From the UHGV virus genome UHGV-0049167: a stretch of DNA of 64,000 nucleotides; one strand, written 5' to 3'. Positions 2,265-43,735 of this stretch are shown in pieces (position 1 is the first letter of the stretch; every line of letters starts with the position of its first letter). The notes beneath the pieces are model-generated. The model worked only from the letters and a program-made list of their open reading frames with translations, was not told the origin of the DNA and searched no databases. The DNA comes from a virus. Position numbers and translations under genes: made by a program.

Positions 2265-3368
2265 ATGAGACGGATAAACGTAAGGCCGCGCAACGGCTAC
2301 AAGCAAAAAATAGAGGAACTGGGCTTCTGTTTCCATGAGGGCTATTGGAAAGAGGAGGCTTGCTACGAGTTTGGCATGGCGGAGATTGAAGCCATCGAAA
2401 AGGCGACCAACGAATGCTATGCCATGTGCTGCGATGCCGTCCAGCACATGATAGACAGCGAAACGTTCCCAATGGACGGCATACCGCAAAGGCTGAAAGA
2501 CGCCATCGTGGCTTCGTGGGAGAAAGACGACCTGTCTCTATACGGAAGGTTCGATTTTGCTTTCGACGGCAATACGCCCAAGCTGCTGGAGTTCAACGCA
2601 GACACCCCAACATCGCTGCTTGAATGCTCCGTGATACAATGGGATTGGAAGCAAGAGGTGTTCCCCTCGTGCGACCAGTTCAACGGCATACATGAGGCTC
2701 TGGTGCAGAGCTTCCGCGACATACACGGGCGGTATGGCTTCGGAAAATACCACTTCGCCTGCTGCCGCGAAAACCTCGAAGACGAGGAGACCTTGCAATA
2801 CATATTGTCCGCCGCGATGGAGGCAGGGCTTGACGTGGCCGAAGTTTCAATGGAACAAATGCTCCTTGATGATGGCGTGTTCCGTACAGCAAACGGCGAC
2901 AGGGTGGAGTGCTGTTTCAAGTTATACCCATGGGAGTGGATGATGACCGAAAGCCCGGAGGGTTGCATGGCCGACACAGTGTGGATAGAGCCTCTTTGGA
3001 AGTCGCTAATGTCAAACAAACTCCTGCTAAGGGTACTTTACGACCTATATCCCGACTCGCCCTACATACTGAAATGTCAAAACGCCCCCAACGGATTGAA
3101 ATCTTACTGCAAAAAGCCGATATTCGGTCGTGAGGGAGCAAACGTGGTGCTTGTCAAGGATGGCTCTGTACTTGAACAGACTGGCGGTGAATATGGAAAC
3201 GATGGATATGTCTACCAGGAAATTGCCGACATACCATGCTTCGATGGCAAATATCCAATAATCGGCTCGTGGGTGATAGGCGGCGAGGCCGCCGGCATGG
3301 GCATCCGCGAATCGTCAACACGGATAACGGACAACATGAGCGAGTTCATTCCCCACATAATAAAGTAA
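2265..3368 (+). CDS. glutathionylspermidine synthase (GspS) family ATP-grasp-like amide ligase
   Basis: 367 aa; motif RFDFAFDGNTPKLLEFNADTPTS and overall length match my recollection of GspS/YgiC-type proteins. Confidence 0.75.
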   Translation: MRRINVRPRNGYKQKIEELGFCFHEGYWKEEACYEFGMAEIEAIEKATNECYAMCCDAVQHMIDSETFPMDGIPQRLKDAIVASWEKDDLSLYGRFDFAFDGNTPKLLEFNADTPTSLLECSVIQWDWKQEVFPSCDQFNGIHEALVQSFRDIHGRYGFGKYHFACCRENLEDEETLQYILSAAMEAGLDVAEVSMEQMLLDDGVFRTANGDRVECCFKLYPWEWMMTESPEGCMADTVWIEPLWKSLMSNKLLLRVLYDLYPDSPYILKCQNAPNGLKSYCKKPIFGREGANVVLVKDGSVLEQTGGEYGNDGYVYQEIADIPCFDGKYPIIGSWVIGGEAAGMGIRESSTRITDNMSEFIPHIIK

Positions 3369-5639: not shown

Positions 5640-5896
5640 CTATATCCATCATCAGGCACGGCGGTGCCAAGAAGTATTTCCATAAACTAAAGTTAAAACA
5701 TCATGCGTATGCCGCCCGTGAGGGTGGCATGCCTGAGCCGCCGGACAGTAAGGCTGTCATTACGCTTCGAGCGCGTCGGCGGCGCAACATGACAGGACTT
5801 TCTTTGACATATTGATATACGAAAGTAGAAGCCACGGACGAGACGGCAATCCATGACCCCGTGGCGAGGACTACGAGTAGGGCTGGAATAAAAAAT

Positions 5897-20576: not shown

Positions 20577-20862
20577 ATGGAACAAGACAACGTTATCGCA
20601 AAGGAATGCTCGCACTGCCACCGCACGTTGCCCGTCACGGAGTTCTACAAGAAGAAAGGCACGTCCGACGGTCTGCAATACTACTGCAAGCAGTGTCAAA
20701 TTGAGTTTAACAACGCCTACAAATGCAAGAAGAAGGCTTTCGGGGGGGGGGAATCCCGAACTCTCACGCTTCACGCCACGTCAGCTTATGGAGGAACTTA
20801 AAGCCCGCGGCTATACTGGAGAACTGAAATATGTACAAACAATAAATCTTGAAAGATTATGA
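20577..20862 (+). CDS. zinc-ribbon protein interrupted by a G10 tract; full-length product needs a 1-nt frame change at 20742-20751
   Basis: Frame 0 gives CSHCHRTLPVTEFYKKKGTSDGLQYYCKQCQ...GGG then early stop at 20801; +1 frame continues NPELSRFTPRQLMEELKARGYTGELKYVQTINLERL and ends at 20862 in ATGA overlap with next gene. Confidence 0.45.
20742..20751. repeat. G10 homopolymer tract inside coding sequence
   Basis: cgggggggggga read directly. Confidence 0.9.
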
Positions 20863-21815
20863 CACAGACCGGCATAATCGTCCTTCCGCATCAAATCAAA
20901 ATGAAAGCGTGTGAAATACAACTCGACTACGACACCGTAATGTCAAAGGTAAGCCGCCCGCTTGCAAGGAAGCTGGTACACTCCGTGGAGCTTTTGCGGA
21001 AGTCGGAGAAAATGGCGTTGCGCCTCGACCCCGAAAACGGCTTTTACCTTGCGTTCAGCGGCGGCAAGGACAGCCAATGCCTCTACCATGTCGCAAAGCT
21101 GGCCGGTGTCCGCTTCAAGGCTCACATGAACCTTACGAGCATAGACCCGCCCGAAGTCATCCGCTTCGTCAAGACGCAATACCCCGATGTGGAGCTAATC
21201 AAACCACGGATGAGCATTTACGAAATGGCTAAGAAAAAGCACATCTTGCCTACAAGGATTTTGCGCTGGTGTTGCGCCGAGTTCAAGGAAACGTCAGGCG
21301 TTGGCAAAATAACACTTGTCGGTGTGAGAAAAGAAGAAAGCGCACGGCGAGCCAAACGTGAGGAAATATCCACAGAGATAAAGGGCAAGCGCACTGAGGA
21401 AACCTTTGACCAATGGAGCGAACATGAGGAGAGCATGGTTGCGTGTGTCGGCGGTAAGGACAAAATCCTTGTATCGCCCATAATCTATTGGACGGAGCGC
21501 GACGTGTGGGAGTTCCTTAACGTGAACGGCATACCACACTGCGAACTCTACGACGAGGGTTATACACGCATTGGCTGCATCTGTTGCCCTATGTCGCAAC
21601 CATGGCAAAAAGCCAAAGAGATTAAACGTTGGCCGCACGTCAAACGCAATTGGATAAAGACAATCCAATGGCTGATAGACAACGGATATATCGACCACAA
21701 TTTCAACGACGCTGAAACAGGCTTTAGGTGGTGGATAAGCGGCAAGGGCTACAAGCAGTTCTACGCCGACGAGTTCCTGCAACAGAAAATTGAATTTAAA
21801 GACAAAGACCAATGA
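20859..21815 (+). CDS. phosphoadenosine phosphosulfate (PAPS) reductase family protein (PP-loop ATP pyrophosphatase fold)
   Basis: PP-loop motif YLAFSGGKDSQCLYHV; 318 aa. Confidence 0.7.
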   Translation: MTQTGIIVLPHQIKMKACEIQLDYDTVMSKVSRPLARKLVHSVELLRKSEKMALRLDPENGFYLAFSGGKDSQCLYHVAKLAGVRFKAHMNLTSIDPPEVIRFVKTQYPDVELIKPRMSIYEMAKKKHILPTRILRWCCAEFKETSGVGKITLVGVRKEESARRAKREEISTEIKGKRTEETFDQWSEHEESMVACVGGKDKILVSPIIYWTERDVWEFLNVNGIPHCELYDEGYTRIGCICCPMSQPWQKAKEIKRWPHVKRNWIKTIQWLIDNGYIDHNFNDAETGFRWWISGKGYKQFYADEFLQQKIEFKDKDQ

Positions 21816-23501: not shown

Positions 23502-24557
23502 ATGAATTTTGCCAAATTTTACGATATAAGTGATTGGGTAGAAAAGCCCTACATCAACACAAAAGGTACCAGGAACAAATGTATTGTCATAGACCCAGAT
23601 AGTGGTATTGAATATTATTTCAAAACCTCTATCCACAAAGGTGCTATGGACTACAAGACTGAGTTCTGGTCAGAAATCATAGCTTCCAAAGTTGGGCAAT
23701 ATCTGAATTTCAATGTGCTGGATTATAACATAGCCAAACATAAGGATGAAGTCGGTTGCCTCTCTATGTCTATGATAAAAGACGGTGAATGCCTTACGGA
23801 GGGTATAAGTCTACTGACAGGATTCGACAATACTTATCGACCGTCAGACAAAGATTCATATTCACAATACACTTTCCATTTCATTGAAGAGGCCATAAGC
23901 AGTTTCGGATTGTCAAAGAACATTGACGATGTTATCAGGACCATTATCTTTGACTCTATAATAGGGAATAGTGACAGGCATCAAGAAAACTGGGGGTTCA
24001 TCACGCCTTTTCAAGAAAAAACATTAACAAGGGAGGAGGCAAAAAGTTTTCTTGGAAGATTGAAAGAGCGCATCAAGAAGATACAGGATTCATCGCGTGG
24101 CAACAACGGAAACGTTCCTTTAGACGTCCACGTCAAGATACGGATTTTGCAAATTGTCGGTAAATACGCTCCGATATATGACAGTGGATGCTGTCTCGCA
24201 CGTGAAAAAAACGAAGGAGCCGTAAGGCAAATGCTTAATGACAAAATAATGTTCGACAGTTTTGTCAACCGTGGGCAGTCTGAAATACGTTGGGACGAAA
24301 GTGGGAGAAAGCTAAACCATTTCGAGTTGATAAAGCGCATAAAAGAAAAATATTACGAAGTCGTTACCGATACAATCAACCAAGTCATCGCCGTTTATGA
24401 TGAAAATAAGATACATGACATTGTATTTAACATAGACAAGCGCCTTCCTGACGTACTGAAAGCTGACGAACGTTGGGCTTTGTCTGATGACAGGAAAGAA
24501 TTGATATGTAGATTGATTGACGAACGTTTTAACAGACTAAAAAACATTATATTATGA
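23502..24557 (+). CDS. HipA-like (PI3/4-kinase fold) serine/threonine kinase domain protein
   Basis: Catalytic-loop-like DSIIGNSDRHQENWGF and APIYDSGCCLA; 351 aa, lacks long HipA N-terminal region; AT-rich upstream region. Confidence 0.6.
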   Translation: MNFAKFYDISDWVEKPYINTKGTRNKCIVIDPDSGIEYYFKTSIHKGAMDYKTEFWSEIIASKVGQYLNFNVLDYNIAKHKDEVGCLSMSMIKDGECLTEGISLLTGFDNTYRPSDKDSYSQYTFHFIEEAISSFGLSKNIDDVIRTIIFDSIIGNSDRHQENWGFITPFQEKTLTREEAKSFLGRLKERIKKIQDSSRGNNGNVPLDVHVKIRILQIVGKYAPIYDSGCCLAREKNEGAVRQMLNDKIMFDSFVNRGQSEIRWDESGRKLNHFELIKRIKEKYYEVVTDTINQVIAVYDENKIHDIVFNIDKRLPDVLKADERWALSDDRKELICRLIDERFNRLKNIIL

Positions 24558-25225
24558 AAAGATATATAAGACAAATCTACTTGGTATGGAGACGAGGTAG
24601 AAACGAAAGAAGAATAAAGGTCGGAAGAATTCTCCGTAATAGTACGGAGGGGGTACGGTTCATGTACATGTCAGAAGGAGTCAAGGAAGCAGTGGAAAAA
24701 GGATTCAATATGTATCCTGATTTTCCAGACCCAGGAAAAGTGTACCATAACAACGTGCTTGAAATATTTTCACAGAGGTTGAACAACACCGAACGTTCAG
24801 ATATACAAAAGTATTATGACTATTGGGAAATAAGCCCTGAGATGAAAGATGACAAATATTATGTGCTTGCCCAAACGCAAGGACTTCTGCCGACAGACAC
24901 ATTCGAGTTTCTTGCAGAATATTATCCGGTAAAGGATTTGCGTTTTACCAGCGAAATTTGTGGATTGACAAAAATGCAGCTTCCTAACGGAACTTTGAAA
25001 GAAGGTGATATGCTAAAATGGAAATTGGAGCCAAGTAATCCTTACGATAAATATGCCGTAAAGTTATATAAGGAGAATAAGGAATTAGGATATGTTAAAT
25101 TAATACACAGTAAGGTTTTCCATGATTCAAAATACAAAAAATTCGCTGTAAAGGTAAAAAGCGTAGAACAGAATGGACATATAAACAGGGTTTTTGTTTC
25201 CGTATCCACTATTAATGTCAGGTAA
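24554..25225 (+). CDS. HIRAN-domain protein
   Basis: C-terminal EPSNPYDKYAVKLYKENKELGYV resembles HIRAN signature; ATGA overlap with kinase gene. Confidence 0.55.
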   Translation: MKRYIRQIYLVWRRGRNERRIKVGRILRNSTEGVRFMYMSEGVKEAVEKGFNMYPDFPDPGKVYHNNVLEIFSQRLNNTERSDIQKYYDYWEISPEMKDDKYYVLAQTQGLLPTDTFEFLAEYYPVKDLRFTSEICGLTKMQLPNGTLKEGDMLKWKLEPSNPYDKYAVKLYKENKELGYVKLIHSKVFHDSKYKKFAVKVKSVEQNGHINRVFVSVSTINVR

Positions 25226-25316: not shown

Positions 25317-25871
25317 ATGAACTTAAAGAAACTATCACAAAAAGCTTTTGAGACCGCAAAGGCGCACGGATGGCATGATGAAGAACTTCCTGACGAAACT
25401 TATTTGATGCTTATCATAACGGAGATAGCCGAAGCTGTACAGGCAGATCGCAATAACAGGCACACGGATATAGACCTTTTCAAAGCATTACTTGAAACAT
25501 ACGCCAAAGATGATGCTGTATTTAAGTATGAATTTGAGACACATATCAAAAACAACGTCGAGGATGAGCTTAGCGACATAATCATACGCTGTCTTGACCT
25601 TGCCGCGCTACGTAATTGCGACCTTTCCCTTGCAAAGGCTGTGACAGACGACAATATTTTTACAGTGAATGACGAGCTGCCAAAATTCGCTTTCAGGATG
25701 TGCTGGATGCTTACGTATGAAGCTGACACCTTGTGCAGCCGACTGAATTGCTGTATTGCTGGCGTCATCGCATACTGCCATCAAAAAGACATCGACATCG
25801 ACTTCTTCGTCGAGCAGAAGATGCGCTATAACAGACTCCGCCCATTTAAGCATGGGAATAAGAAATATTAA
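25317..25871 (+). CDS. MazG-like / all-alpha NTP pyrophosphohydrolase-like protein (tentative)
   Basis: 184 aa; AFETAKAHGWHDEE...LMLIITEIAEAVQADR resembles MazG-type helix. Confidence 0.45.
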   Translation: MNLKKLSQKAFETAKAHGWHDEELPDETYLMLIITEIAEAVQADRNNRHTDIDLFKALLETYAKDDAVFKYEFETHIKNNVEDELSDIIIRCLDLAALRNCDLSLAKAVTDDNIFTVNDELPKFAFRMCWMLTYEADTLCSRLNCCIAGVIAYCHQKDIDIDFFVEQKMRYNRLRPFKHGNKKY

Positions 25872-25878
25872 ACATATT

Positions 25879-26262
25879 ATGAAAATGAAAAATTTTGATT
25901 ACAAGACATCTTTTGAGGCTTTCGCCGTAATGGTAACGGCATGGGTTACATTCTTTCTGACTGACGTTTTCCTGCCGGAATGGTTATTCTGGTTATTCTT
26001 CTTGTTATTTGTCCTTATGCTGCTATGGTGCGCCGGTTACAAAAGACCTCATTACTGGTTCTATATCAGACACAGGCAGGACAACAAAAATGATGTGGGT
26101 GTCCTGAAGACATACAGTCCGTATACCCCGTTTTACGTTTTCGGGGATTCTGACGGAGTAATAAGCCAGAACTGCTTTGAAATCAGTTGTGATGACTACG
26201 AGAGATTGTTCGTATCTATAAACTCAGAAAAGGAGGAATCTGATGACACAGATGCCAAATGA
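25879..26262 (+). CDS. membrane protein
   Basis: Internal ATG; hydrophobic FAVMVTAWVTFFLTDVFLPEWLFWLFFLLFVLMLLW. Confidence 0.4.
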   Translation: MKMKNFDYKTSFEAFAVMVTAWVTFFLTDVFLPEWLFWLFFLLFVLMLLWCAGYKRPHYWFYIRHRQDNKNDVGVLKTYSPYTPFYVFGDSDGVISQNCFEISCDDYERLFVSINSEKEESDDTDAK

Positions 26263-26446
26263 TGTATACTCCGCCCGTCTGTTTGCCGAGGCGGAGCATC
26301 TGATTGCCATACATTGTCCGCGCTCGGCACAGGCTCCTGTGCGACGCATAGCAAGGCACGATGCCGATGTTTACGGGTTGGACTATGGGGAAGCTTTGGT
26401 GCGACGGCAGGGAGAGTTCTACGAAAGACTGTTCCCAGATGGCTGA
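26243..26446 (+). CDS. hypothetical small protein
   Basis: 67-aa ORF. Confidence 0.3.
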   Translation: MTQMPNDVYSARLFAEAEHLIAIHCPRSAQAPVRRIARHDADVYGLDYGEALVRRQGEFYERLFPDG

Positions 26447-26448
26447 TA

Positions 26449-26958
26449 CTACCACTGCCAAAGCCTATAATATACGGATATTCCTATGAAAGGTGTCGGT
26501 TTCATGTCTTTCCCTATACCGTAACCTGCGGCAATACCGACGCCAAGGAGCGGACTTTCCTTGTACCTTGTGACAGTTACAGTCTCGTGTCTCGGATATA
26601 CAAATATACTGTCAAGATTCGCGCGGAATCCGCTCACGTATGCGGTATAGGTACTGTCCTTATAGACTTTGGAAGTTATAGGCAGTGTCACCTTGACGCT
26701 GTCGCCTGTATTCCCGCCCTTCTCTTCGTATATCGTGTCTTTGCGGCAAGTCACGGGCAACGTCTCCGTAACATACCGTATCACCGTACTGTCTTTGGGT
26801 ACAGGATTCAAGAACGGAATGGTGTCTATATATGTAGTCCGTACTGTGTCCTGATTCGTTGTTTTCTTTCCGGCATTACTGCACTGGAGTATGTTGACGC
26901 ATAATGATGCGGTCAACAACACCGATACTACCACAAGCAATCCTTTAAATCTTCCCAT
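26449..26958 (-). CDS. secreted or membrane-anchored protein
   Basis: N-terminal signal-like MGRFKGLLVVVSVLLTASLCVNILQCS; 82 nt downstream of HTH-ImmA gene on same strand. Confidence 0.45.
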   Translation of the reverse strand: MGRFKGLLVVVSVLLTASLCVNILQCSNAGKKTTNQDTVRTTYIDTIPFLNPVPKDSTVIRYVTETLPVTCRKDTIYEEKGGNTGDSVKVTLPITSKVYKDSTYTAYVSGFRANLDSIFVYPRHETVTVTRYKESPLLGVGIAAGYGIGKDMKPTPFIGISVYYRLWQW

Positions 26959-27040
26959 GTTCTTTCATTTTTTATTAAACAAAAAGCGGCAACCCTTGAT
27001 ATGTGGGTCACCGCCTGTGTTGTATCAAAATAGATAATTG

Positions 27041-28096
27041 TTATATTAGTGGCTTTAATGATATTATCCTAGCAGATTTGCCGAATATCTTTATCAAGAC
27101 ATCCTCGGGCAAGCCTGTGCTTTCCGAAATCATGCTGATTGAATACCCCAATGTGTCCGATACCAGCCTATATGCCTGCTCAAAGACGGTAGGGCTGTCA
27201 ATAGGCACTTCGTAAGGTTCTTTCTTATTCCAATGACGTCTGCTGAACTCCATTCTCATAGACTTGTACTTCTCACTTGCAATGGCGTTTATGTTTTTTG
27301 CCTTTTCCAAAAGTGATGCCATGGAAACAAGCCAATACCGTTTCAGCTCAGGGAACTGTCCGAGTCTGACATTGTGCAAGGCGTTTCTGACAACTTGGGA
27401 GGGGAGAAGGAACTCCGATGCAAAAGCGTTCGCCTCTTTCTCCTTGTCTCTAATGCTGAATACCGGGAAACTTGGGCACTCGTGCATCAGTATGTGTCCC
27501 AGCTCATGTGCAAGCGTAAACCTTACCCTGTCGTTGCTTCTGTTCCTGTTCACGATGATAAGATGATTGCCTGCGTCAGTTATCAGGGAAACCCCGTCAA
27601 ACTCGTCGTTAGGACTGTCCCACATGTAAATGAATACCCCGTTTCGCTCAAGGAATTTGCAAATATCGGATATAGGCGACATGCCGAGCCTGTATTTGTT
27701 CCTTATGTGCCCGGCAAGTTCCTCCGGGCTTATGCCGTTGTCCATGTCGTAGTATCCAAATGAATAGTCAGGTATCTCGACAAATTCACTAAGCCAATCA
27801 AAACAATACGCAATCAGGGATATTGTCCTGTCTATCTCGTTGCGTGTCTTTACGGTTATGGTAGCCTTTTTCCTGTAATGCTTGCTGTCTACCTTGTTCA
27901 CAATATTCATGTCAAGGAATTTCATCGGGAAATCAAGCGTGGACATAATCAAACCAAGCATGTTGTCAGACAGCCCGCCAAACCCCTTTTCGTATTTTGA
28001 CAGGTTGGATTGCGACAGCCCTTTGACTTTTGCCGCGAGTGCGGTTTGCGTGAATCCCCTGTATTCCCTTGCGAATGTAAGCTGCTCACATTTCAT
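27041..28096 (-). CDS. XRE-type HTH domain fused to ImmA/IrrE-family (M78-like) metallopeptidase domain
   Basis: N-terminal HTH FTQTALAAKVKGLSQSNLSKYEKG; HExxH-type FTLAHELGHILMHE. Confidence 0.8.
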   Translation of the reverse strand: MKCEQLTFAREYRGFTQTALAAKVKGLSQSNLSKYEKGFGGLSDNMLGLIMSTLDFPMKFLDMNIVNKVDSKHYRKKATITVKTRNEIDRTISLIAYCFDWLSEFVEIPDYSFGYYDMDNGISPEELAGHIRNKYRLGMSPISDICKFLERNGVFIYMWDSPNDEFDGVSLITDAGNHLIIVNRNRSNDRVRFTLAHELGHILMHECPSFPVFSIRDKEKEANAFASEFLLPSQVVRNALHNVRLGQFPELKRYWLVSMASLLEKAKNINAIASEKYKSMRMEFSRRHWNKKEPYEVPIDSPTVFEQAYRLVSDTLGYSISMISESTGLPEDVLIKIFGKSARIISLKPLI

Positions 28097-28145
28097 AAGA
28101 CATTGCTTTTATAGTTCTTTTTTTAACAGACGGTGTGCCCTGCTG

Positions 28146-28739
28146 TTATTCTGCTTTCTTTTCTCCTGTCTCTTTCTTTTTCAGGCGGACAACAATCTCC
28201 TGCGTGTCTGTATTGGCAACCGGTACATTCACACCGTCTTCCATATAGGAAGTCCATTGAACCCCATCGTCATACAAGACAATTCTCGGGTTTACGAGCT
28301 GCCCGAAACCGTCCTTTGTATATCCGAAAATCAATATCGGCTCTTCCTTGCCTTCATCGCCTTGGAAAAGCGGTAATTGGTATTGGTTGACAATCGAATC
28401 TGAAAGTATTGTCGGAATGTAAGACGGCTTGTCATTCTTGTTCAATTTCTTGATGAGCATGAGCACACCGTTCCATCTGAATATTATCCTTCCGTATTTG
28501 CCTTTGTTCCAGTTCTCGGGAAATGTGAGAATGAAACTCTCTGTTATTTTTGCGTTAAGCAAAGGACCTACAAGCCTTGTCCTTGCTTCAGGTATGGTCA
28601 TATTTACTTCTTCATTGTAATTTGCCAAACCTGCGTAATACGCCTTGAAGATGTCCTCATAACAATCTTTTAGCAGTTCCAACGCTTCTTTTTTCGTGAT
28701 GCGTTTTCGTTTCTTAAAATTATTATTTATATTTGCCAT
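28146..28739 (-). CDS. hypothetical protein, first gene of HTH-ImmA cassette
   Basis: Internal ATG start MANINNNFKKRKR; 197 aa; no motif recognised. Confidence 0.5.
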   Translation of the reverse strand: MANINNNFKKRKRITKKEALELLKDCYEDIFKAYYAGLANYNEEVNMTIPEARTRLVGPLLNAKITESFILTFPENWNKGKYGRIIFRWNGVLMLIKKLNKNDKPSYIPTILSDSIVNQYQLPLFQGDEGKEEPILIFGYTKDGFGQLVNPRIVLYDDGVQWTSYMEDGVNVPVANTDTQEIVVRLKKKETGEKKAE

Positions 28740-28903
28740 ATAATTTAAATTTAAGACGGGCACACCGTCTGTAATTTCAGCCCTTATTGCCGTAAGGGCT
28801 TCTTATATGGTGCAAAGATATATAATTTCCCCAAATAATTGTATATAATTTTTCGAAAATATTGTATATTTAACGGCAACCCACAATGTCAAAGAACGCC
28901 TTT

Positions 28904-28932
28904 ACGACGGTTGCAAATTCCGCAACCGTCGT
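28904..28932. terminator. strong hairpin (11-bp perfect stem acgacggttgc/gcaaccgtcgt, 7-nt loop) 26 nt beyond endolysin stop
   Basis: Read directly; U-rich tract follows on plus strand, so orientation is ambiguous. Confidence 0.4.
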
Positions 28933-28958
28933 CAGTTATTTCCATTTTGGAAACGAGC

Positions 28959-29552
28959 TCACACTTTCCCCAAGTACGCCATGATGCCTTCCACGTGCAG
29001 CTCCACAATGGTTCGCTTGCCTTTCTCGCTCAGCAGATAGTCCACGTCCTCCCGGTTGTCCTGAAAAAGGTTTTCAGTCAGGACTGCGGGACAATTTGTG
29101 TCACGGCATATTGCGAGATTCTGTGTCCAATATGGCTCATCCTGTGAGTATCTTCGGACTTTCAGTCCTTGTGTCTCTGCCGCGTCAATCAGACGGCAGG
29201 CGAGCTCTTTGCTCTTCTTTGAAGCGTTGCGCGAGACATAAGCCGACCATCCTCTGGCGTCATGCCATTTGCCGTCGGCACCAGCCGCGTTACAGTGTAT
29301 TGAGACAAGTATCGCTTTCTTTCCTGTCGCGGCATAAATCCTGTTTGCCCTTTCGCACCGCTCTTTCAGGCTGATGTCGTTTTCCTCGGGCACAATGCGC
29401 TGCGCGTCATATCCACGTGCCTTGAGTTCCCTTTCAAGACGCACTGCAATCTCACGGGCGTATGCGTATTCGAGCAGGCGTCCGTCAGGCGACCGTTTCC
29501 CTGCGGTGTCCTTTCCGTGTCCCGCATCAAGTATAACTTTAAAATTTTCCAT
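28959..29552 (-). CDS. N-acetylmuramoyl-L-alanine amidase (Amidase_3-type endolysin)
   Basis: ILDAGHGKDTAGKRSPDG and SIHCNAAG motifs; last gene of minus-strand late operon. Confidence 0.8.
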   Translation of the reverse strand: MENFKVILDAGHGKDTAGKRSPDGRLLEYAYAREIAVRLERELKARGYDAQRIVPEENDISLKERCERANRIYAATGKKAILVSIHCNAAGADGKWHDARGWSAYVSRNASKKSKELACRLIDAAETQGLKVRRYSQDEPYWTQNLAICRDTNCPAVLTENLFQDNREDVDYLLSEKGKRTIVELHVEGIMAYLGKV

Positions 29553-35572: not shown

Positions 35573-38500
35573 TCATAAATATATGTTTCCGTTCGTGTCC
35601 GTGTCATCATCGTCAATGCGATTAATCTGTATCATCTGCACCCTGTCATAATTCATGTATACGGCTGTTGTCGTTATCATGCTGCCGTAGTATACGGTGC
35701 CGCTTCCCGGTTGTACGATTCCGATGTTCGAGAATCTGTATACATTGCGCGAGCACCATTGTCTGGAGAAATCCACCTTTTCCGCATAGTCATCCTCATA
35801 TCGCGTATAGTCCATTGGCGGTGTGTCCATAGGCGAGCCTATCATGAACGATTCCGGATTGTCCTGCGCCCACATTCCTGTGACAGCCTGTGCCGTGGTC
35901 ACATTACCCTGCTCCATGAACCATCTGCCGTTCGCGGCTCTTGCAATCTCCGGAGTGGAGGCGTAGTCACCGCTGAGATATGTGTCGTTTACGCGCCCTG
36001 CAAGATACATGTACAAAGGTGTTTTCGTGTACACATGACCATATTGGAATATGGTGTTCATTATCTGTTTGTTGCCAACGATGTCGCCTACGGTGGAGAA
36101 TGTGGCCCCTGTCAGCTGCAGGCGTCCGTATTTGCTGCTGGTCTCCCACCGTTCTTCCGAGACATCCTTGCCGGACAGTCCCCACGGTCCGAGGTCATAA
36201 AGGAACGTACCGTCATTGTCATAATAGGACAGTACCATGTATGAGCCGTTATATCCCATTTTGATGTTGGTCACACCGTTAGGGTTCTTTACCTCAATCA
36301 GTCCTCCCTTTATCTCCACATGCCCCTGTCCTTCGTCCATCGTGCGGAGCATCACACCTGTAAGGGTGCCCGCCTCGTCGATTGTGGTGACTGTCTCGCC
36401 GGAGTTGTTCTGTATCTCGAAGTTGTCGGCAGTGACCTTTATGCGCTTGTGTTCAATGTCTATCCCTGTCGCCTGCAGCTCGTCGCGCGTGATTGTCTCC
36501 GAACGCCAGTCGGTCGCCTCGCTGCCTTTCTCCAGCTTCACTCCGCATATCCAGACCTCTCCCTGTGCAGAACTGTCCGGCATGAGCCGTGCCGCTATCA
36601 GGCTCTTCCCTCCGCTTACGTCATTGCGAGTGCTCCATGTCACCTGATAACGGTTCCATCCGCTTTCAAGCGTGAACTGCACGAATCCGTCTGTCACACC
36701 TGTCTGGTTCTTCGTCCCCGGACTTGTGACCCAGTCGGTGCAGTTCGGATAGAAGTACGAGCCGATGCTGCCTGTGCCGCGCGCCCAGAATGAGAGCGTA
36801 TACTGTACGCCCGGCTCGGGCACCACGTTGCGCCATGTGATGACGTCCTTGTATGATGTCCCGGCTTCGTTCACACCGTGTGCCACGCTTATTTTTTCTC
36901 CGTAAGGTGTCGTGTATGCTCCTGCCTCTACGGTATCCTGTACGGTGCATTGGCTGAAGTCCGATGTTCCTGGAAGAAGATTCGGTCTTTTAAGCCTGTC
37001 CTCCGCGCTGAGTCCCCAGTCTGTCGCGTCCGCACCTGTCTCTATCTTGGGACGCGACACGGACGAGTATCCTGATGATATGCCCTGTATATACAGGTTA
37101 CACTGCTCTACCGACGCCACAGCCTTGTCCTGTATCCTGTGTGTGGAGCTTATGCGTCCCTCGAACGTGTCCGTGGATGTTATCTGCCTCCATGTCCCGA
37201 GATACTGCGTACTGCCGTCGGCATACCGTATCATGGGCTCCATGCCGATACGTCTGTTGCCTGATGCTGCCGGAACCGCAGATACGGTCTTGACAAGACA
37301 TGATACGGTTATTGTCTTTCCGCGCAGGCTTGACACATCCCCGATTGTGTAGACCTTGTTCCCGTTCCCTGTCAGGAATATGTCAGGAGTGGTCACCATG
37401 TTTCCGTCCTTTGCCCCAAGATAGCCGACTTTAAGGCTTATGCTGTCCGTCTCAGCCTTAATCTGCGATGAGAGTGCCATGGACGATACAGTGAAGGACA
37501 GGCGGCAGCTCACACTGCGGGTCTCCCCGCCCAGCGTTGCCTGTGCCGTAATCTGTACCCATCCCGCTCCGTATGGCACCGAACCTCCCCAGTCTGCCGT
37601 ATATGTCCCTATTGCGGTTATTGTAACCTGTGCCCCGTTGCGTGACGCAAGACAGTGCATAGGCTCTATGGCGGTAATTGTGACAGTCATCTCGCGCGTG
37701 CCGAGCCATGCGCGCAGACGTGATGTCGCATCCTGCATGCTCACCACACCGTCACTGTCAGCCTCCAATGTTATGGCGGCAGGGTCAAGTGCCCATGAGA
37801 AGCCGTCCTGCCCGTCCGTGCCGGGTTCACCGTCACTTCCGTCCGCTCCGTCCTCACCGCGTATCCGTGTCCACTTATATGAGGTAACGCTTGTCGGGTC
37901 ATATGAGTTGAAGTCTACGCATTGCCCGAGCCACGCGCCCGGTGTCTCACCGTTGTTTGCTGTGAACGTCTTTCCCCCGTCGTCGGAATATTTGATGTGA
38001 AGGTAGCTTGTCTTTCCGTCCGTACCGTTGGTTCCCGGTATTCCCTGCTCCCCATCATACCCTTGGAAGCGTGACCACGTGTAGTCCGAAGGGTCGTCGC
38101 TGTCTGCCTCCGTGAAGTCAACGTATGTGCCGATGTAGAGGTTGGGAACTTCTGACATTGGAGTCCCGTTGGAGTTTGCCGAGTATTTAACATGGAAATA
38201 TGTCGTACGACCGTCCTCTCCTGCGGGTCCCGGAACGCCCTGCTCCCCCTTGTCTCCTTTTTCTCCGGTATCACCCTTTATCTTTGACCATTTATAATCG
38301 GACGGTGTTCCGCTGTCTGTAGGATTCGTGTCTGTAAGGACTCCAATCCAGTCACCGCTGTCCTCTCCGTTGTTTCCGGTAAAGGTGACGCCTCCGTCGT
38401 TAGAGTATTTGATATGGAGATAATATGTCGTGCCGTCAGTCCCATTCACGCCCGGCAAGCCCTGTTCTCCCTGTATGCCTTCAAATCTTGACCAAGTGTA

Positions 38501-41500
38501 GTCAGATGCATCAGTACTGTCTGTTTCTGTAAAATCGACGTAAGTACCTATGTATTTGTCAGGCGTCTCGGTCATGGGCGTACCGCTCGCGTTCGCAGAA
38601 TACTTTATGTGGAAGTAGCTTGTACGTCCGTCCGCACCGGGTGTTCCGGGTATGCCTTGCTCGCCTTGCGGTCCTTGTAATCCTTGAAGCCCCTGCTCGC
38701 CTCTATCACCTTTGTCTCCTTTGTCGCCCTTTATCTTCAACCAAGTGTATTCTGACGAGTCTGTGCTGTCGTCAGCGTTGGTGTCTGTCATGACGCCAAT
38801 CCACGCGCCCGGTGTCTCACCGTTGTTTGCTGTGAACGTCTTTCCCCCATCATCGGAGTATTTGATGTGAAGATAATATGTAAGCCCGTCCACACCGTTG
38901 GTTCCCGGTATTCCCTGCTCCCCATCATACCCTTGGAAGCGTGACCACGTGTAGTCCGAAGGGTCGTCGCTGTCTGCCTCCGTGAAGTCAACGTATGTGC
39001 CGATGTAGAGGTTGGGTGTCTCGGTCATGGGATTTCCGTTCTCGTTTGAAGAATATTTCACATGGAAGTATGTGGTCTTTCCGTCATGACCGGGTGCCCC
39101 GTCTTTACCGGCTACACCGGGAATACCCTGCTCTCCTTGCGGACCCTGCGGTCCCTGTATGTTTCCGGCATTCACCCACTTGTCACCGTCCCACACCCAT
39201 AAGTCTCCGTCTATGAGCCATGCGTCACCGACCGCGTTGCCGTCCTGCGGGAGTTCGGAAGAGTCATTCTTCGAACCTTTCAGATTGAATGAAGTCCCGT
39301 CCTCTCCACGGAATTTGCTCCATGTATAGTCGGAAGGATTGTCGCTTTCCTGTGCGCTCTCTTTGTTTACGGCTATGCCTATATATTTTGTCGTGTCTGA
39401 AGGGGTCTGATACATAGGCTCACCGTCCGGACTGTCAGAGTAGGCAATCCATGTATAGAGAGTCTCACCGTCCTCGCCCTTTGCTCCCGGCACTCCGTCC
39501 TCGCCTTTTATCTCTGACCAGGTATAGTCCGATGGATTGTCGCTTTCCTGTGCGGTATTCTTGTTATATGCGAATCCAATGTATTTCTTTCCGGAAGGGT
39601 CGTTGGATATGCCTCCTCCTTCAGCGGTGTCGGAATATCTTATCCATGTGTAAAGTGTCTTCCCGTCCTCACCGGACGGTCCTGGTACACCCTGTGGTCC
39701 CATGTCACCTTTCTCACCCTGCTGTCCGTCCATACCTCTGAAACGTGCCCATGTATAATCAGAGGGGACATCGCTCGCTGTAGGGTTAAAATCCACGCGT
39801 GTACCGATAAATACATCCGGAGTCTCACTCATGGGCACACCGTCAGGATTCGGTGAATATCTTATGTGAAAATATGTGGTTTTCCCGTCTGCTCCGTCTT
39901 CTCCAGCCGGACCCTGTATTTTTCCTGCGTTTGCCCATGCGCTGCCGTCCCATACCCACAGATAGCCGTTCACGAGATACGCGTCTCCTGTGCTGTTCCC
40001 TGTTGGCGGCAGCATGCTCTCGTCATCAACGCTTCCCTTCACAGTGAATGACGTGCCGTCCTTTCCGTCAGTACCTTTAATCCTTGACCATGCATAGTCG
40101 CTGTAGACGAGAGCCACGTCGCTCTCCGTGCGGTCTGTGCATATGCCGAGCATGAGCCAGTCTTTTGCCGTGCTCTGGGATTTGTCCTTTGTCCAGTCGT
40201 CCGGACCGTTTCCCCATGCAAGGTGCGTGTAGCTGACAAGACCGGAAGTGTCCACATCCAGCTCGCCTCTTATCTTATTGCCGTTAGCCGCGAACCATGT
40301 CGTGCGGTACTGGCTTAGAGAAAAACTTGTGATTCCGTTGTATTGCGCGAATGACGGACTCTCCAGCTCGGTATCCGGAGTGGAGTGGGCGGCTATTATT
40401 ATCGCATGGCTGCGCGCTGTGTCGTCACCACGGTGTCCGCACAGACAAACGCTGTCACCCTCTGCAGGCTCAAGGCTGTCAGCCGCGCACGTGGCTTCAG
40501 ACACTTCAATCCAATGGCACTTTCTGTCCTCACCGTCAATGTTCCGTGTTCCGCTCCCTGTTGCCGTGACAAGTCTCCACCATAGTCTGTTTCCTGCATC
40601 ATATGATGTCCCCTCGGCAAGATTGGATGTCATTGCCAGAGCCTGGTCTCCGACCTTCCACATGTTCTGCACGGCTCTGCCGTCGCTGTCCTCCGCCAGC
40701 CACCACAGACGCCATGCTCCGCTTATTCTTTCGACAGAGCGTACCGTGCAGTTAGCAGCGGACAGTATCAGTTGACCTCCGACGCTGTTCAGCTCATCTA
40801 TGACAAGCTCGAAGAAATGTGCCCTTCCTGTCACGGTCAGCGTTTTCATTGTGGCTTCGTCGGCAAGAAGTTTCTTCAGCCGTGCGGTACCGTCCGCATC
40901 TATGCCGTAGTCTCCGTCTCCCACAAGCAGCCCTTTGAGGAATGTTATAATATCCAAGGCTGTGTCCGGACTGTCTTTCCGCAGAAAATACTTCGCGCAT
41001 TGTGCTAAAATGTCACCACGCATGCCATAAGTCAGGGATGTAAGTATCTCTGTTTTTATGGAATCGAGCTGTGCTCTGAATGAGGATTGAGACACGGTCA
41101 GGGTGTCTGTTAAATCCACACTTATTTCATAAAGTATGCTATCATCGGCTTTACAAGTATAGTTGCTGACATACAGAAGATGCTCTTCTTGATTATATCT
41201 TACTGTCAGACGTGTATTTTCATTCAGCAATGAGGTGAAGTCCTCATTTAATGCCAGATATACACGGGAAAATTTTATTGAATATGTGAATTTCTCATCA
41301 TTATTCCCTTTCATGTAAGCAATAAGAGCCGCATCCAGTCTTTTTTCCGCTTCCCGTATGTAGGATTCAGGAAGAGAAATGCCAGTTATGACAAATGTAT
41401 CGCCTATTGACGGACGATATCCTTGTGCCGCGTTCGGCATAATGACACCAAAGGTATCTGTTTCTTTTTTTACGGCTATCCATACTTCATATTCGCTGGT

Positions 41501-43735
41501 GTCCTGCTGGCGTGAAACGTAACTGTTTGTATCACGTGAAGGCAGGATATAGTCTCCTTCATATTTGTCCGCATTAGAACTGTTGACCTTGCGAAGATTG
41601 CCTTGTGCGTCTGTCATGACAGGGTTATAGAATTTGTATCTGTCACCATCGGCATACTTGTCCACCCCGATAACGAAACGGCATGCGGCGCAGTTGCCGC
41701 TTGTCATCTCTATTGCAGCCTCTTCGCTTTCTAATGCATGCTCAAAAATATTGAAGCCTCCACTTCCGTTATATACATGTAGTTTTATATAGAAATATGA
41801 ATGAAGGTATTCGTCACTATTGTCTTTAAGGACATCGCTATCATCCGTATCAAACCGTATGTCAGCTATTTCACCTATCAACTGACCTTGAATGTTTTTT
41901 ATCCCTTTTATTGTCGGGACTATATCTTCAAATGAAGTCGTCCCTTCGTGAGGGTTCAATTCATTGTATACATTATTAAATATATATTTATTTCCTGATT
42001 CATCTTCATCTTCATATGTATTATTGACTGCATTATAGTAGCGTTCCGCTCCTCCACTTTCTCTGTATATAGAGGGCATCAGGCTCTGAGAGGGAGTTAT
42101 CCACTCTCTTCCTGTAATATTAATTATGGCTGGTGTGTGGTCACCGCTGTCCTCCACAACATTCCATTCACCGCCTGAGAAATCCAAATGCGAAGGCGCA
42201 TACGGAACATTGTTTACATCAGACAGCGTTATTCCGCTTTTACTGTATGCGATGTTATTCCCATCTCCATATGAGAAATAATACAGTTCTCCGCCACTTT
42301 TCTGATATGTTATGGATGATTTTGCATTTAACGTCATTCCTATAGTCGCCTGGCTGTTGGTCGCTCCGCTTCCTGAGAAAATGGCGTAAGCAGTCCCTTT
42401 AATCACAACTTGAAACCATCCGCTGGCATGGAAGGTATATTCATAGTCCTTCCAACCTGACAATATTTCTATTTTATCACTTATAGAATCATCCTCATTC
42501 GGATTATAGTCGTCTCTCCATATTCCAATACTTATTGTATTTTTAAGGTTTCTGTCCCCTCCGTAGCTATTTGACGATACTTTCTGCCATGAAAGTGATA
42601 AATCTGCGTCACCGCTGATTTTTCTGAAAGTCAAAAAGGATTCATTGAAAACAAACCGAAGTTTGTCTCCCTCTTGTGCATTTATTTTCAGTCTGAAAGA
42701 TATCGTGATATAGGTGTTGCCTATACCTGTTCCAAAATAGAATATGTCTGTAGCCTCCCTGTTGCTTATTACTGTGGGGCTATATGCATTATAAAAAGGA
42801 GCAGTCTGTCCGATGTCTGCGCTGGCATCCGTGTTTGACACCTTTTTAAGTCTATATGCGGTATATGGGGAACTGTTGTATTTTAGTATCTCATTTAAGG
42901 AGATATCTGCTACTTCAGATTTGTCAATGTTCTCTGTGTCGAAACTCGCGTTGCCCTCCGCACTCATGTTTGGATAGTACCATGGCAAATTTTTTGTGCC
43001 TCCAGTACCGGTTATCCTCGTGATAATCCTGTAATTGGCATTTGTTTTCTGAATAGACAACAGAGCATTGTCATTACCATATTCTATCGGAGTTGTTATT
43101 ACATTCTCTGTATATCCTACGTGGCAGGTCTTCCCTGTCCAATAATAGGCGAGTCCATATACATTATATATATCCTGTAGAGCCTCTGCAATGAACTTGT
43201 CTTCTATACTGACATCTTTGCCCTCAGAAGTTATGCCTTCGTCAATGACAATATGGAAACCTTCTTGTTTGTCTTTATTATATAGACCGCTGTAAATCAA
43301 TGAATCGTTGAGCCGGGCAACAAACTCGTGTACATCACCGAAGAAATGTACTTTAGATGTGTTGCTTCTGTATCGGTCTTTATATTGGGCTTCAGTATCT
43401 TCTGTTACCACATCAAGGAAATACACGTTTTCAAGTATCTCCCTTTCACTTACAAATGTGACCTCATGTTTGTATGTTATCTCAGAATTGTCTTTGGATG
43501 ATGACGGCTTTTGCCTTATATAATACTTCTCTCCGCCAAATTCTATATACTCGTTTAATGTCCATTCATTGTCAAGACATCTTGGGAATTTCAATGTAGC
43601 CGTGAAGGTCGGTGCGCCGCCCATGCGTTGTGCGTCATAGGTGTATGTACCTATGACCGCTTTTTCTGTAGACGAAGGAAAATATTCTTTCACTCCGTTT
43701 GTGTCACGCATTATGTATAAGCTCTTCTTCTCCAT
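35573..43735 (-). CDS. giant 2720-aa structural protein with collagen-like Gly-X-Y tracts and tandem ~85-140-aa modules; putative tail fibre / host-recognition protein
   Basis: Uninterrupted 8163-nt ORF; GPQGVPGPSGEDG, GDKGDKGDRGEQGLQGLQGPQGEQGIPG; repeated YTWSRFQGYDGEQGIPG...YYLHIKYSDDGGKTFT modules. Confidence 0.8.
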   Translation of the reverse strand: MEKKSLYIMRDTNGVKEYFPSSTEKAVIGTYTYDAQRMGGAPTFTATLKFPRCLDNEWTLNEYIEFGGEKYYIRQKPSSSKDNSEITYKHEVTFVSEREILENVYFLDVVTEDTEAQYKDRYRSNTSKVHFFGDVHEFVARLNDSLIYSGLYNKDKQEGFHIVIDEGITSEGKDVSIEDKFIAEALQDIYNVYGLAYYWTGKTCHVGYTENVITTPIEYGNDNALLSIQKTNANYRIITRITGTGGTKNLPWYYPNMSAEGNASFDTENIDKSEVADISLNEILKYNSSPYTAYRLKKVSNTDASADIGQTAPFYNAYSPTVISNREATDIFYFGTGIGNTYITISFRLKINAQEGDKLRFVFNESFLTFRKISGDADLSLSWQKVSSNSYGGDRNLKNTISIGIWRDDYNPNEDDSISDKIEILSGWKDYEYTFHASGWFQVVIKGTAYAIFSGSGATNSQATIGMTLNAKSSITYQKSGGELYYFSYGDGNNIAYSKSGITLSDVNNVPYAPSHLDFSGGEWNVVEDSGDHTPAIINITGREWITPSQSLMPSIYRESGGAERYYNAVNNTYEDEDESGNKYIFNNVYNELNPHEGTTSFEDIVPTIKGIKNIQGQLIGEIADIRFDTDDSDVLKDNSDEYLHSYFYIKLHVYNGSGGFNIFEHALESEEAAIEMTSGNCAACRFVIGVDKYADGDRYKFYNPVMTDAQGNLRKVNSSNADKYEGDYILPSRDTNSYVSRQQDTSEYEVWIAVKKETDTFGVIMPNAAQGYRPSIGDTFVITGISLPESYIREAEKRLDAALIAYMKGNNDEKFTYSIKFSRVYLALNEDFTSLLNENTRLTVRYNQEEHLLYVSNYTCKADDSILYEISVDLTDTLTVSQSSFRAQLDSIKTEILTSLTYGMRGDILAQCAKYFLRKDSPDTALDIITFLKGLLVGDGDYGIDADGTARLKKLLADEATMKTLTVTGRAHFFELVIDELNSVGGQLILSAANCTVRSVERISGAWRLWWLAEDSDGRAVQNMWKVGDQALAMTSNLAEGTSYDAGNRLWWRLVTATGSGTRNIDGEDRKCHWIEVSEATCAADSLEPAEGDSVCLCGHRGDDTARSHAIIIAAHSTPDTELESPSFAQYNGITSFSLSQYRTTWFAANGNKIRGELDVDTSGLVSYTHLAWGNGPDDWTKDKSQSTAKDWLMLGICTDRTESDVALVYSDYAWSRIKGTDGKDGTSFTVKGSVDDESMLPPTGNSTGDAYLVNGYLWVWDGSAWANAGKIQGPAGEDGADGKTTYFHIRYSPNPDGVPMSETPDVFIGTRVDFNPTASDVPSDYTWARFRGMDGQQGEKGDMGPQGVPGPSGEDGKTLYTWIRYSDTAEGGGISNDPSGKKYIGFAYNKNTAQESDNPSDYTWSEIKGEDGVPGAKGEDGETLYTWIAYSDSPDGEPMYQTPSDTTKYIGIAVNKESAQESDNPSDYTWSKFRGEDGTSFNLKGSKNDSSELPQDGNAVGDAWLIDGDLWVWDGDKWVNAGNIQGPQGPQGEQGIPGVAGKDGAPGHDGKTTYFHVKYSSNENGNPMTETPNLYIGTYVDFTEADSDDPSDYTWSRFQGYDGEQGIPGTNGVDGLTYYLHIKYSDDGGKTFTANNGETPGAWIGVMTDTNADDSTDSSEYTWLKIKGDKGDKGDRGEQGLQGLQGPQGEQGIPGTPGADGRTSYFHIKYSANASGTPMTETPDKYIGTYVDFTETDSTDASDYTWSRFEGIQGEQGLPGVNGTDGTTYYLHIKYSNDGGVTFTGNNGEDSGDWIGVLTDTNPTDSGTPSDYKWSKIKGDTGEKGDKGEQGVPGPAGEDGRTTYFHVKYSANSNGTPMSEVPNLYIGTYVDFTEADSDDPSDYTWSRFQGYDGEQGIPGTNGTDGKTSYLHIKYSDDGGKTFTANNGETPGAWLGQCVDFNSYDPTSVTSYKWTRIRGEDGADGSDGEPGTDGQDGFSWALDPAAITLEADSDGVVSMQDATSRLRAWLGTREMTVTITAIEPMHCLASRNGAQVTITAIGTYTADWGGSVPYGAGWVQITAQATLGGETRSVSCRLSFTVSSMALSSQIKAETDSISLKVGYLGAKDGNMVTTPDIFLTGNGNKVYTIGDVSSLRGKTITVSCLVKTVSAVPAASGNRRIGMEPMIRYADGSTQYLGTWRQITSTDTFEGRISSTHRIQDKAVASVEQCNLYIQGISSGYSSVSRPKIETGADATDWGLSAEDRLKRPNLLPGTSDFSQCTVQDTVEAGAYTTPYGEKISVAHGVNEAGTSYKDVITWRNVVPEPGVQYTLSFWARGTGSIGSYFYPNCTDWVTSPGTKNQTGVTDGFVQFTLESGWNRYQVTWSTRNDVSGGKSLIAARLMPDSSAQGEVWICGVKLEKGSEATDWRSETITRDELQATGIDIEHKRIKVTADNFEIQNNSGETVTTIDEAGTLTGVMLRTMDEGQGHVEIKGGLIEVKNPNGVTNIKMGYNGSYMVLSYYDNDGTFLYDLGPWGLSGKDVSEERWETSSKYGRLQLTGATFSTVGDIVGNKQIMNTIFQYGHVYTKTPLYMYLAGRVNDTYLSGDYASTPEIARAANGRWFMEQGNVTTAQAVTGMWAQDNPESFMIGSPMDTPPMDYTRYEDDYAEKVDFSRQWCSRNVYRFSNIGIVQPGSGTVYYGSMITTTAVYMNYDRVQMIQINRIDDDDTDTNGNIYL
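37931..38146. repeat. ~216-bp direct repeat, copy 1 (inside giant gene)
   Basis: Near-identical to 38801-39016; last ~125 bp identical by eye. Confidence 0.85.
38801..39016. repeat. ~216-bp direct repeat, copy 2 (870 bp downstream of copy 1)
   Basis: Near-identical to 37931-38146. Confidence 0.85.

Follow-up and report, generated by a model that had tools for sequence, protein, structure and literature searches.

RosmerTA is a recognised defence family whose mechanism is unresolved and which is largely unstudied in gut Bacteroidales. In tested RosmerTA, the rmrA deletion mutant was untransformable, possibly due to toxicity (Millman et al., 10.1101/2022.05.11.491447). Antitoxins of the ImmA/Rosmer node are found with many unrelated toxins, and the toxin gene comes first in 58% of cases (PMC10440598). 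A phage-encoded example, the RmrTA of Gordonia phage Kita, defends against coliphages (PMC10440598). In Streptococcus pneumoniae, the Rosmer toxin RipA interacts with the sliding clamp DnaN, and mutations in the hydrophobic pocket of the clamp suppress RipA toxicity (PMC12795458). The present analysis concerns a 64,000-nucleotide (nt) stretch of the virus genome UHGV-0049167 (hereafter, the window), in which two adjacent minus-strand genes, named T and A, were characterised. The window represents a phage genome encoding a terminase, a major head protein, and RecT, and the carrier is a Bacteroidales (Prevotella/Segatella-type) phage. The region 28870-26977 on the minus strand is best read as a toxin-antitoxin or abortive-infection module of the RosmerTA kind carried as dispensable phage cargo, with a probability of roughly three in four. 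The genes, domains, and boundaries of the module were located as follows.

29552-28959: Amidase_3 endolysin gene, upstream of T, recognised by Pfam and PHROG family matches
28904-28932, minus strand: terminator-like 12-bp hairpin just 3' of the endolysin stop codon, the upstream module boundary
28739-28146, minus strand: open reading frame (ORF) of T, 197 amino acids (aa) counted from the ATG
28096-27041, minus strand: ORF of A, 351 aa
28069-27923, minus strand: XRE helix-turn-helix (HTH) domain of A, Pfam HTH_3, residues 10-58
27592-27302, minus strand: M78 zinc peptidase domain of A, Pfam Peptidase_M78, residues 169-265
27508-27494, minus strand: HELGH motif of A, residues 197-201
26977-27016, minus strand: intrinsic terminator with a 12-bp stem and UUUUUGUUU, the downstream module boundary, before the DUF6808 gene
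26958-26449, minus strand: ORF of the DUF6808 protein, 169 aa

The linkage between T and A was evaluated across related loci. A homologue of A was present directly 3' of T and on the same strand at every close locus (37/37), and it also followed T at all 52 distant loci having downstream sequence. A search with the pattern of the promoter described below returned 23 viral contigs, all of which carried T, and A was the next gene in all 22 that continued past T. The two genes are therefore a co-oriented pair, as RosmerTA genes are. The identities of T and A covaried across loci, rising and falling together. T evolves faster than A and is the replaceable component of the pair.

Both borders of the module were marked by stable folds. 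The 66-nt stretch containing the upstream terminator-like hairpin folded at -26.2 kcal/mol (z = -4.7), and the terminator between A and the DUF6808 gene (27016-26977) gave a z of -3.7. The region 28870-26977 is a self-contained two-gene unit inserted inside the phage lysis cassette. The ORFs, the HELGH motif, and both leader hairpins named in the original prediction were all found on the minus strand where it had placed them. A longer T ORF beginning at a GTG at 28763 was considered unlikely, since the starts of the homologues align with the ATG and the GTG lies inside the second leader hairpin.

Domain analysis of A revealed Pfam HTH_3 and Peptidase_M78 matches, both above the cut-offs, and this combination of an XRE-type HTH with an M78 (ImmA/IrrE) zinc peptidase is the one that characterises RmrA of RosmerTA. 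Fourteen PADLOC RmrA models matched A, the best with an E value of 1e-58 over residues 3-343, which is near full length. Further matches were obtained to phrog_2439 (2e-74), to the NCBIfam model of the spr1629-family repressor/antitoxin (NF052239; 108.6 bits), and, for the protease domain, to capP in the PADLOC scan (8.5e-20). Full-length relatives of A occurred in 29 GenBank phages. Judged by sequence, A is a full-length RmrA-type protein consisting of an XRE HTH and an M78 zinc peptidase. The original prediction of an HTH-ImmA/IrrE fusion, a protease-coupled regulator accompanied by an unknown effector, was thus borne out and could be made more specific.

Sequence comparison placed T in a small, undescribed family of proteins of about 200 aa. 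The family comprised 115 clusters at 90% identity; only 109 representatives, all of about 200 aa, were present among 1.84 billion proteins, and the named members came from Bacteroides, Segatella copri, and Prevotella. Neither T nor 68 diverse relatives produced a meaningful match in Pfam, PHROGs, NCBIfam, or PADLOC, where only scattered, unrelated single hits were obtained for the relatives. A PADLOC Orf5 match to T (E 0.003) was dismissed, as it covered the N-terminal helices only. The T-family profile did not match any PDB sequence, and among 50,697 GenBank phages no member of the T family was found by tblastn and no match to the region by megablast. The AlphaFold2 (AF2) model of T was an alpha/beta protein with a predicted local distance difference test score (pLDDT) of 83 and a predicted template modelling score of 0.76. 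The pLDDT fell below 50 only at the termini (residues 1-5 and 173-197), including the C-terminal tail, which is conserved, rich in Lys and Glu, ends in KKAE, and is predicted to be disordered. The Kyte-Doolittle 19-residue maximum of T was 1.0, indicating the absence of a hydrophobic segment.

No fold search with the T model gave a significant match, the best Foldseek E values being 0.2 against PDB and 0.13 against BFVD. The top PDB matches were EcoRV, the C-terminal part of Sau3AI (Sau3AI-C), and HincII at E values of 0.2-1, and the BFVD matches included several PD-(D/E)xK proteins at non-significant E values of 0.1-1. Invariant or near-invariant positions of the T family were K97, P105, R84, K98, L99, T110, Q119, G139, and Y140. 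No acidic residue was conserved in the family, and the catalytic D...(D/E)xK pattern was accordingly missing; a canonical PD-(D/E)xK nuclease is therefore unsupported, and this candidate was set aside.

The remote homology and structure searches proposed in the original prediction for the 197-aa product thus returned no structural or housekeeping family. As T is in addition the obligate partner of A, an abortive-infection-type toxin is the best reading of T, which can be regarded as a candidate RmrT-type toxin by comparison with the tested RosmerTA systems. Of the two roles originally envisaged for a regulated effector, the abortive-infection factor is the one retained; the other, an anti-defence factor, has no support, and the T-A pair is also located beside defence genes in bacterial chromosomes. 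By analogy with the tested systems, T would act as the toxin and be neutralised by A, and the HTH domain of A would mediate repression of the operon. A second infecting phage, or some other stress, might then free T, so that the cell would stop and the lysogen population would be protected.

The contexts of the T-A pair were diverse. In addition to the phage lysis cassette, the pair was found in polysaccharide loci of Segatella copri chromosomes, at a site with QatABCD and a PIN toxin-antitoxin pair as neighbours, and in a Bacteroides prophage, between a GH108 lysin and an Mrr-type nuclease. T and A move together among phages, prophages, and chromosomal defence neighbourhoods. A sister phage, L128 (IMGVR_UViG_3300045988_126137), did not carry T-A, while its flanking proteins were 93-98% identical to those of the window. 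In its region 5640-5760, the promoter with its tandem repeats was retained as far as the -7 box and was followed immediately by the final ~13 nt of A, the terminator, and DUF6808; this junction resembles the scar of a deletion between short AT-rich microhomologies. The absence of T-A from this near-identical phage indicates that the pair is dispensable cargo.

These contexts bear on the explanation of the pair as a phage regulatory switch, in which A would be a fused repressor/anti-repressor of the ImmR/ImmA or IrrE/DdrO kind and T its regulated product, such as a host-takeover protein shutting off host replication in lytic growth. Pairs of M78 and HTH proteins govern induction in ICEBs1 and many prophages (PMC10440598), the T-A pair adjoins late genes in the phage, and a clamp-binding-like motif in T (see below) would also fit a phage replication inhibitor. 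However, the same pair with the same promoter resides at non-prophage sites of S. copri chromosomes and also beside QatABCD and PIN defence genes, and its loss from the sister phage marks it as dispensable. The pair is located at the lysis end of the phage with no adjoining integrase or early-gene control region, and the RmrA models match A across its whole length. Considering also that the two domains are fused in A, an ImmR/ImmA-type induction switch was rejected, and a switch of the general kind is unlikely.

The roles of the two proteins might also be reversed or shared, with the M78 peptidase of A as the harmful activity and T as a sensor, adaptor, or substrate. COG2856 is said to have been put forward as the toxin in an older proposal. 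Such an arrangement would suit the lack of recognisable catalytic residues or a fold match in T, whose Lys/Glu-rich tail ending in KKAE could be a protease substrate, and the mechanism of RosmerTA is unresolved in the literature (PMC10440598). Against this, the authors who found the rmrA deletion mutant untransformable suggested possible toxicity (10.1101/2022.05.11.491447), and in RipAB and the RmrTA of phage Kita it is the partner that is toxic and the HTH-M78 protein that counteracts it (PMC12795458; PMC10440598). The faster evolution and replaceability of T are likewise those expected of Rosmer toxins. Reversed roles are hence improbable, and T is retained as the presumptive toxin. The control region of the module comprised the following elements.

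28881-28898, minus strand: conserved block GTTCTTTGACATTGTGGG upstream of the repeats
28813-28870, minus strand: family-specific promoter/operator, consensus over 65 distinct upstream regions
28779-28800, minus strand: leader hairpin 1, 8-bp stem AGCCCTTA/TAAGGGCT with the loop CGGCAA, supported by covariation
28758-28772, minus strand: 5' arm of a long-range duplex, ACAGACGGTGTGCCC, overlapping leader hairpin 2 (28770-28754)
28126-28140, minus strand: 3' arm of the duplex, GGGCACACCGTCTGT, 29 nt before the A start codon

In the ~58 bp preceding the transcript, conservation was higher than in the T and A proteins themselves. This promoter/operator consisted of two tandem ~25-bp units, ATACAAT-N10-AAATTATAT, at 28867-28843 and 28844-28820, of which the second runs into a Bacteroidetes-type -7 box, TATCTTTG (28820-28813). 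As the promoter is of the Bacteroidetes type, a sigma-70 promoter scan was uninformative here. By analogy, the tandem repeats would be the operator bound by the HTH domain of A. The GTTCTTTGACATTGTGGG block recurred in most phage-borne copies and in the scar of the sister phage; of the S. copri chromosomal copies, the first ones inspected (L001-L005) lacked it.

Downstream of the promoter, the 96-nt leader folded at -26.9 kcal/mol (z = -3.4), and none of 200 shuffles was as good. Covariation of hairpin 1 was assessed on 44 leaders aligned with MAFFT without reference to structure. Paired cells amounted to 93.5%, compared with 74% in shuffles and 31-49% in slid controls, and both sides changed in 7 of the 8 pairs. 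Both leader hairpins of the original prediction are real and conserved, with the qualification that hairpin 2 is better seen as an arm of the long-range duplex.

The two arms of this duplex are complementary at 15/15 bases and are separated by 617 nt, so that they enclose the whole T cistron: the 5' arm ends 18 nt before the T start codon and the 3' arm starts 5 nt after the T stop codon. The chance expectation of such a match in the window was ~0.1, and minimum-free-energy folding of the 717-nt transcript included the duplex. Ungapped duplexes of 10 bp or more could be identified in 53 of 57 distinct loci, with a length of 10-20 bp (median 14); across the family, the median distances were 19 nt from the end of the 5' arm to the T start and 8 nt from the T stop to the beginning of the 3' arm. 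The arms varied widely between clades, with 42 distinct core sequences, and complementarity was nonetheless preserved. Cognate leader and spacer pairs had a mean duplex energy of -26.8 kcal/mol, compared to -12.7 (standard deviation 5.6) for non-cognate pairs, and the cognate spacer ranked first among the 57 for 32 leaders and within the top five for 50 leaders. Duplex mismatches in the mRNA sense were G·U in 38 cases versus A·C in 15, and the sense-strand duplex was more stable than the antisense one (-26.8 vs -24.6 kcal/mol). These patterns indicate that the inverted arms would pair as RNA within the T-A mRNA, enclosing the toxin cistron. An Rfam scan of 26300-29100 gave only a spurious snoRNA match and no family, and no published description of such a long-range duplex in Rosmer systems was found. 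A 12-nt exact copy of the 5' arm, GACGGTGTGCCC, was observed on the same strand inside the 2720-aa ORF (window 39833-39847, minus strand); it may be due to chance or may be a second pairing partner.

The geometry of the RNA suggests that the duplex probably limits or times the translation of T relative to that of A. Candidate mechanisms are a hok-type fold-back inhibition of T translation, a processing stem for RNase III, and an opening of the duplex by the ribosome terminating on T. The inverted repeats could instead act as DNA, either as recombination sites of an invertible or exchangeable cassette or as a duplicated operator. Inverted repeats that bracket genes are typical of invertible regions in Bacteroidales, and hairpin 1 is almost purely Watson-Crick. 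In none of the 119 loci examined, however, was T inverted relative to the promoter and A, and no linked recombinase was present at the chromosomal and prophage loci examined. The 42 distinct arm cores are incompatible with recognition by a site-specific recombinase or a conserved HTH, and both the G·U-biased mismatches and the more stable sense duplex argue against a DNA-level function, which is very unlikely.

The 169-aa protein encoded downstream of the module belongs to Pfam DUF6808. It has an N-terminal membrane anchor in a strongly hydrophobic region (Kyte-Doolittle 19-residue maximum 2.44 at residue 6) and a Gly-rich C-terminus. The original prediction had counted this secreted protein as the third gene of the cassette. 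Since a terminator separates A from DUF6808, the three ORFs are adjacent yet do not make up one cassette; DUF6808 lies past the terminator and its distribution is independent of T-A. In nine viral contigs (L027-L035), DUF6808 was located upstream of T, and in L027, the sole contig examined in detail, it followed a holin and an endolysin inside the holin-endolysin cassette. In more than 25 viral contigs without T-A, it was directly 3' of the Amidase_3 endolysin, and L113-L119 and L128 are among the contigs in which the DUF6808 gene was noted. DUF6808 is thus probably a component of the lysis cassette, and its product is possibly spanin-like; for annotation, it is better handled as a lysis-cassette gene of these phages. 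A joint action of all three genes, with DUF6808 as a regulated secreted effector, would agree with their adjacency and common orientation in the window and two near-identical contigs, but it is highly improbable given the strong terminator, which is also kept in the sister phage, the occurrence of DUF6808 elsewhere upstream of T or without T-A, its retention in place after T-A loss in the sister phage, and its absence from all chromosomal T-A loci.

For the RosmerTA-type module, a possible target of T was suggested by a short motif resembling the beta-clamp-binding motif.

28365-28385, minus strand: codons for Q119-Y-Q121-L-P-L124-F125 of T

The sequence Q.[SPD]LF followed by acidic residues was present in 44 of 44 members of the clade to which the window belongs (Q121-L-P-L-F125 in the window), and Q..LF in 28 of 68 members of the wide T family. 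Clamp-binding proteins share the consensus QL[S/D]LF, more generally QxxLF, with positions 1, 4, and 5 being the most important (PMC12309361), and the pentapeptide of T is present and conserved in the manner of beta-clamp-binding proteins. Clamp poisoning, in which the Q-x-[S/P/D]-L-F of T would insert into the hydrophobic cleft of the beta sliding clamp and thereby stop replication, can be proposed tentatively, at rather low probability, by analogy with RipA. The ends of RipA taken from published primers (MLNQDLFDSLE... and ...PRIEKQEGQK) both differed from those of T, the comparison being made on the termini alone. A broader scheme, in which the T family would be new beta-clamp poisons bearing an internal QxSLF on an inactivated nuclease-like scaffold, with a hok-like mRNA fold-back gating their synthesis, is doubtful. 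If true, it would describe a type II Rosmer system, disseminated by gut Bacteroidales phages, in which the toxin cistron is also under RNA control in the style of type I systems.

Remote relatives of T were sought among other partners of RmrA-type proteins. In Gordonia phage Howe, gp35 (206 aa; L097 851-1471) precedes the RmrA-type gp34 (PADLOC 2e-59). Alignment of the gp35-family and T-family profiles by hhalign gave a probability of 77% and an E value of 2e-5 over 161 columns, and T is probably a remote homologue of gp35, both probably belonging to a larger uncharacterised superfamily of Rosmer partners. At the C-terminus of the gp35 family, an acidic tail bears the invariant sequence LPQ(L/I)DLSEV, which also resembles a clamp-binding hexapeptide and differs in position from the T motif. 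Another family of ~220 aa with a conserved NKQ[FY][DN]LF was observed among RmrA-type partners of Enterococcus and Lacticaseibacillus phages and of an S. pneumoniae conjugative element; the antitoxins of this family scored 222-237 bits on the spr1629 model, under its cut-off. The pneumococcal homologue P0291 was rejected as RipA, as the antitoxin scored 237 versus 335 bits and the N-terminus was unlike the RipA primers.

Several observations weigh against the RosmerTA-type reading or parts of it. A was far under the equivalog cut-off of NF052239 (108.6 vs 335 bits), and no PADLOC RosmerTA toxin model matched T, so PADLOC would not call the system. Restriction-endonuclease-like folds topped all three fold searches of T, at non-significant scores, and this ranking of the modelled structure would suggest a different, nucleic-acid-directed activity, although the family conserves no acidic residue. 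The clamp-like motif lies inside a confidently folded stretch (pLDDT about 91), so that the conservation of L124 and F125 may reflect packing; the motif is missing from the most distant members of the family, and the comparison of T with the NKQ[FY][DN]LF toxins of Firmicutes gave an hhalign probability of 8%, so homology is not claimed. Hairpin 1 contained nearly no G·U pairs (3 cells) and could also be a DNA palindrome, and the function of the duplex, as read from its geometry, is putative.

Other cargo was observed near the module and elsewhere in the window. A second defence-like pair lies on the opposite strand, 1.2 kb from T-A, consisting of a HipA-like kinase-fold protein (23502-24557, plus strand) and a HIRAN-domain protein (24554-25225, plus strand) encoded by overlapping genes and matching PDC-M03A/B, a candidate defence system of PADLOC (8e-60 and 1.5e-30). 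It is followed by a MazG-like pyrophosphatase (25317-25871, plus strand; phrog_9236, 1e-49) and an overlapping 168-aa ORF (25756-26262, plus strand) with hydrophobic segments and no family match. Glutathionylspermidine-synthase-like and 3'-phosphoadenosine-5'-phosphosulfate (PAPS)-reductase-like proteins were encoded at 2265-3368 and 20859-21815, both on the plus strand, and two giant ORFs of 2720 and 1915 aa at 35573-43735 (minus strand) and 53267-59014 (plus strand).

The T family is invisible to current defence-finding tools, and such systems would consequently be under-counted in gut phages and in Prevotella/Segatella genomes. The covarying duplex is a candidate for post-transcriptional control in a protein-antitoxin operon, and the clamp-binding-like motif, set beside the RipA-DnaN result, provides a testable target hypothesis for T.

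Compared with known systems, T-A resembled RosmerTA most broadly. Both are two-gene operons with an HTH + M78 antitoxin in the commoner toxin-first order, the toxin is without known function, and both occur in phages and in defence neighbourhoods, which for T-A comprise the QatABCD, PIN pair, and Mrr neighbours as well as the PDC-M03-like genes of the window. In contrast to RosmerTA, T matches no known Rosmer toxin model, RmrT models included, and the T and A genes do not overlap but are separated by a conserved ~50-nt spacer carrying a duplex arm. The missing RmrT match is not defining, as RmrT is heterogeneous; it lowers automatic detection and not the functional analogy. The gp35/gp34 pair of phage Howe shares with T-A an RmrA-type protein (gp34) and an upstream partner of ~206 aa with the co-linear motifs FK[KR], PT, GY, and W. 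Unlike T-A, it belongs to an actinobacterial host, with relatives in Gordonia and Brachybacterium, and its genes overlap and thus leave neither spacer nor long-range duplex; gp35 lacks the internal QxSLF, and its identity to T is about 12%.

An M78 zinc peptidase coupled to an XRE HTH is also seen in ImmR/ImmA of ICEBs1, IrrE/DdrO, and CapH/CapP. In these systems, two separate proteins control an adjacent operon for excision, DNA repair, and cyclic-oligonucleotide-based anti-phage signalling (CBASS), respectively. In A, by comparison, the domains are fused and T is the only regulated partner. In hok/sok, Gerdes and colleagues reportedly described a 5' leader pairing with a segment 3' of the toxin ORF, preserved by covariation. 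T-A likewise has a covarying long-range pairing that encloses the toxin ORF. It differs in that T, with 197 aa, is soluble and shares its operon with the gene of a protein antitoxin, that the 3' arm is intercistronic and not at the mRNA end, and that the antitoxin is a protein and no antisense RNA was seen, in place of the small hydrophobic toxin and antisense RNA of hok/sok.

RipAB (Spr1630/Spr1629) has the same antitoxin architecture and toxin-first order, and A matches the spr1629-family model. RipA acts via the partner-binding pocket of DnaN (PMC12795458), and T has an invariant QxxLF-type motif, for which clamp binding is hypothetical. The N-termini of RipA and T differ, however, and A remained below the NF052239 cut-off (108.6 vs 335 bits), so that T-A was rejected as a RipAB equivalog. 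The RmrTA of phage Kita is a precedent for a phage carrying a Rosmer module, although its toxin has a C-terminal membrane segment and depolarises the membrane (PMC10440598), whereas T has no hydrophobic segment. Taken against these systems, the type of module is already known from RosmerTA, and what is new is the T family, its family-specific promoter, and the covarying long-range RNA bracket.

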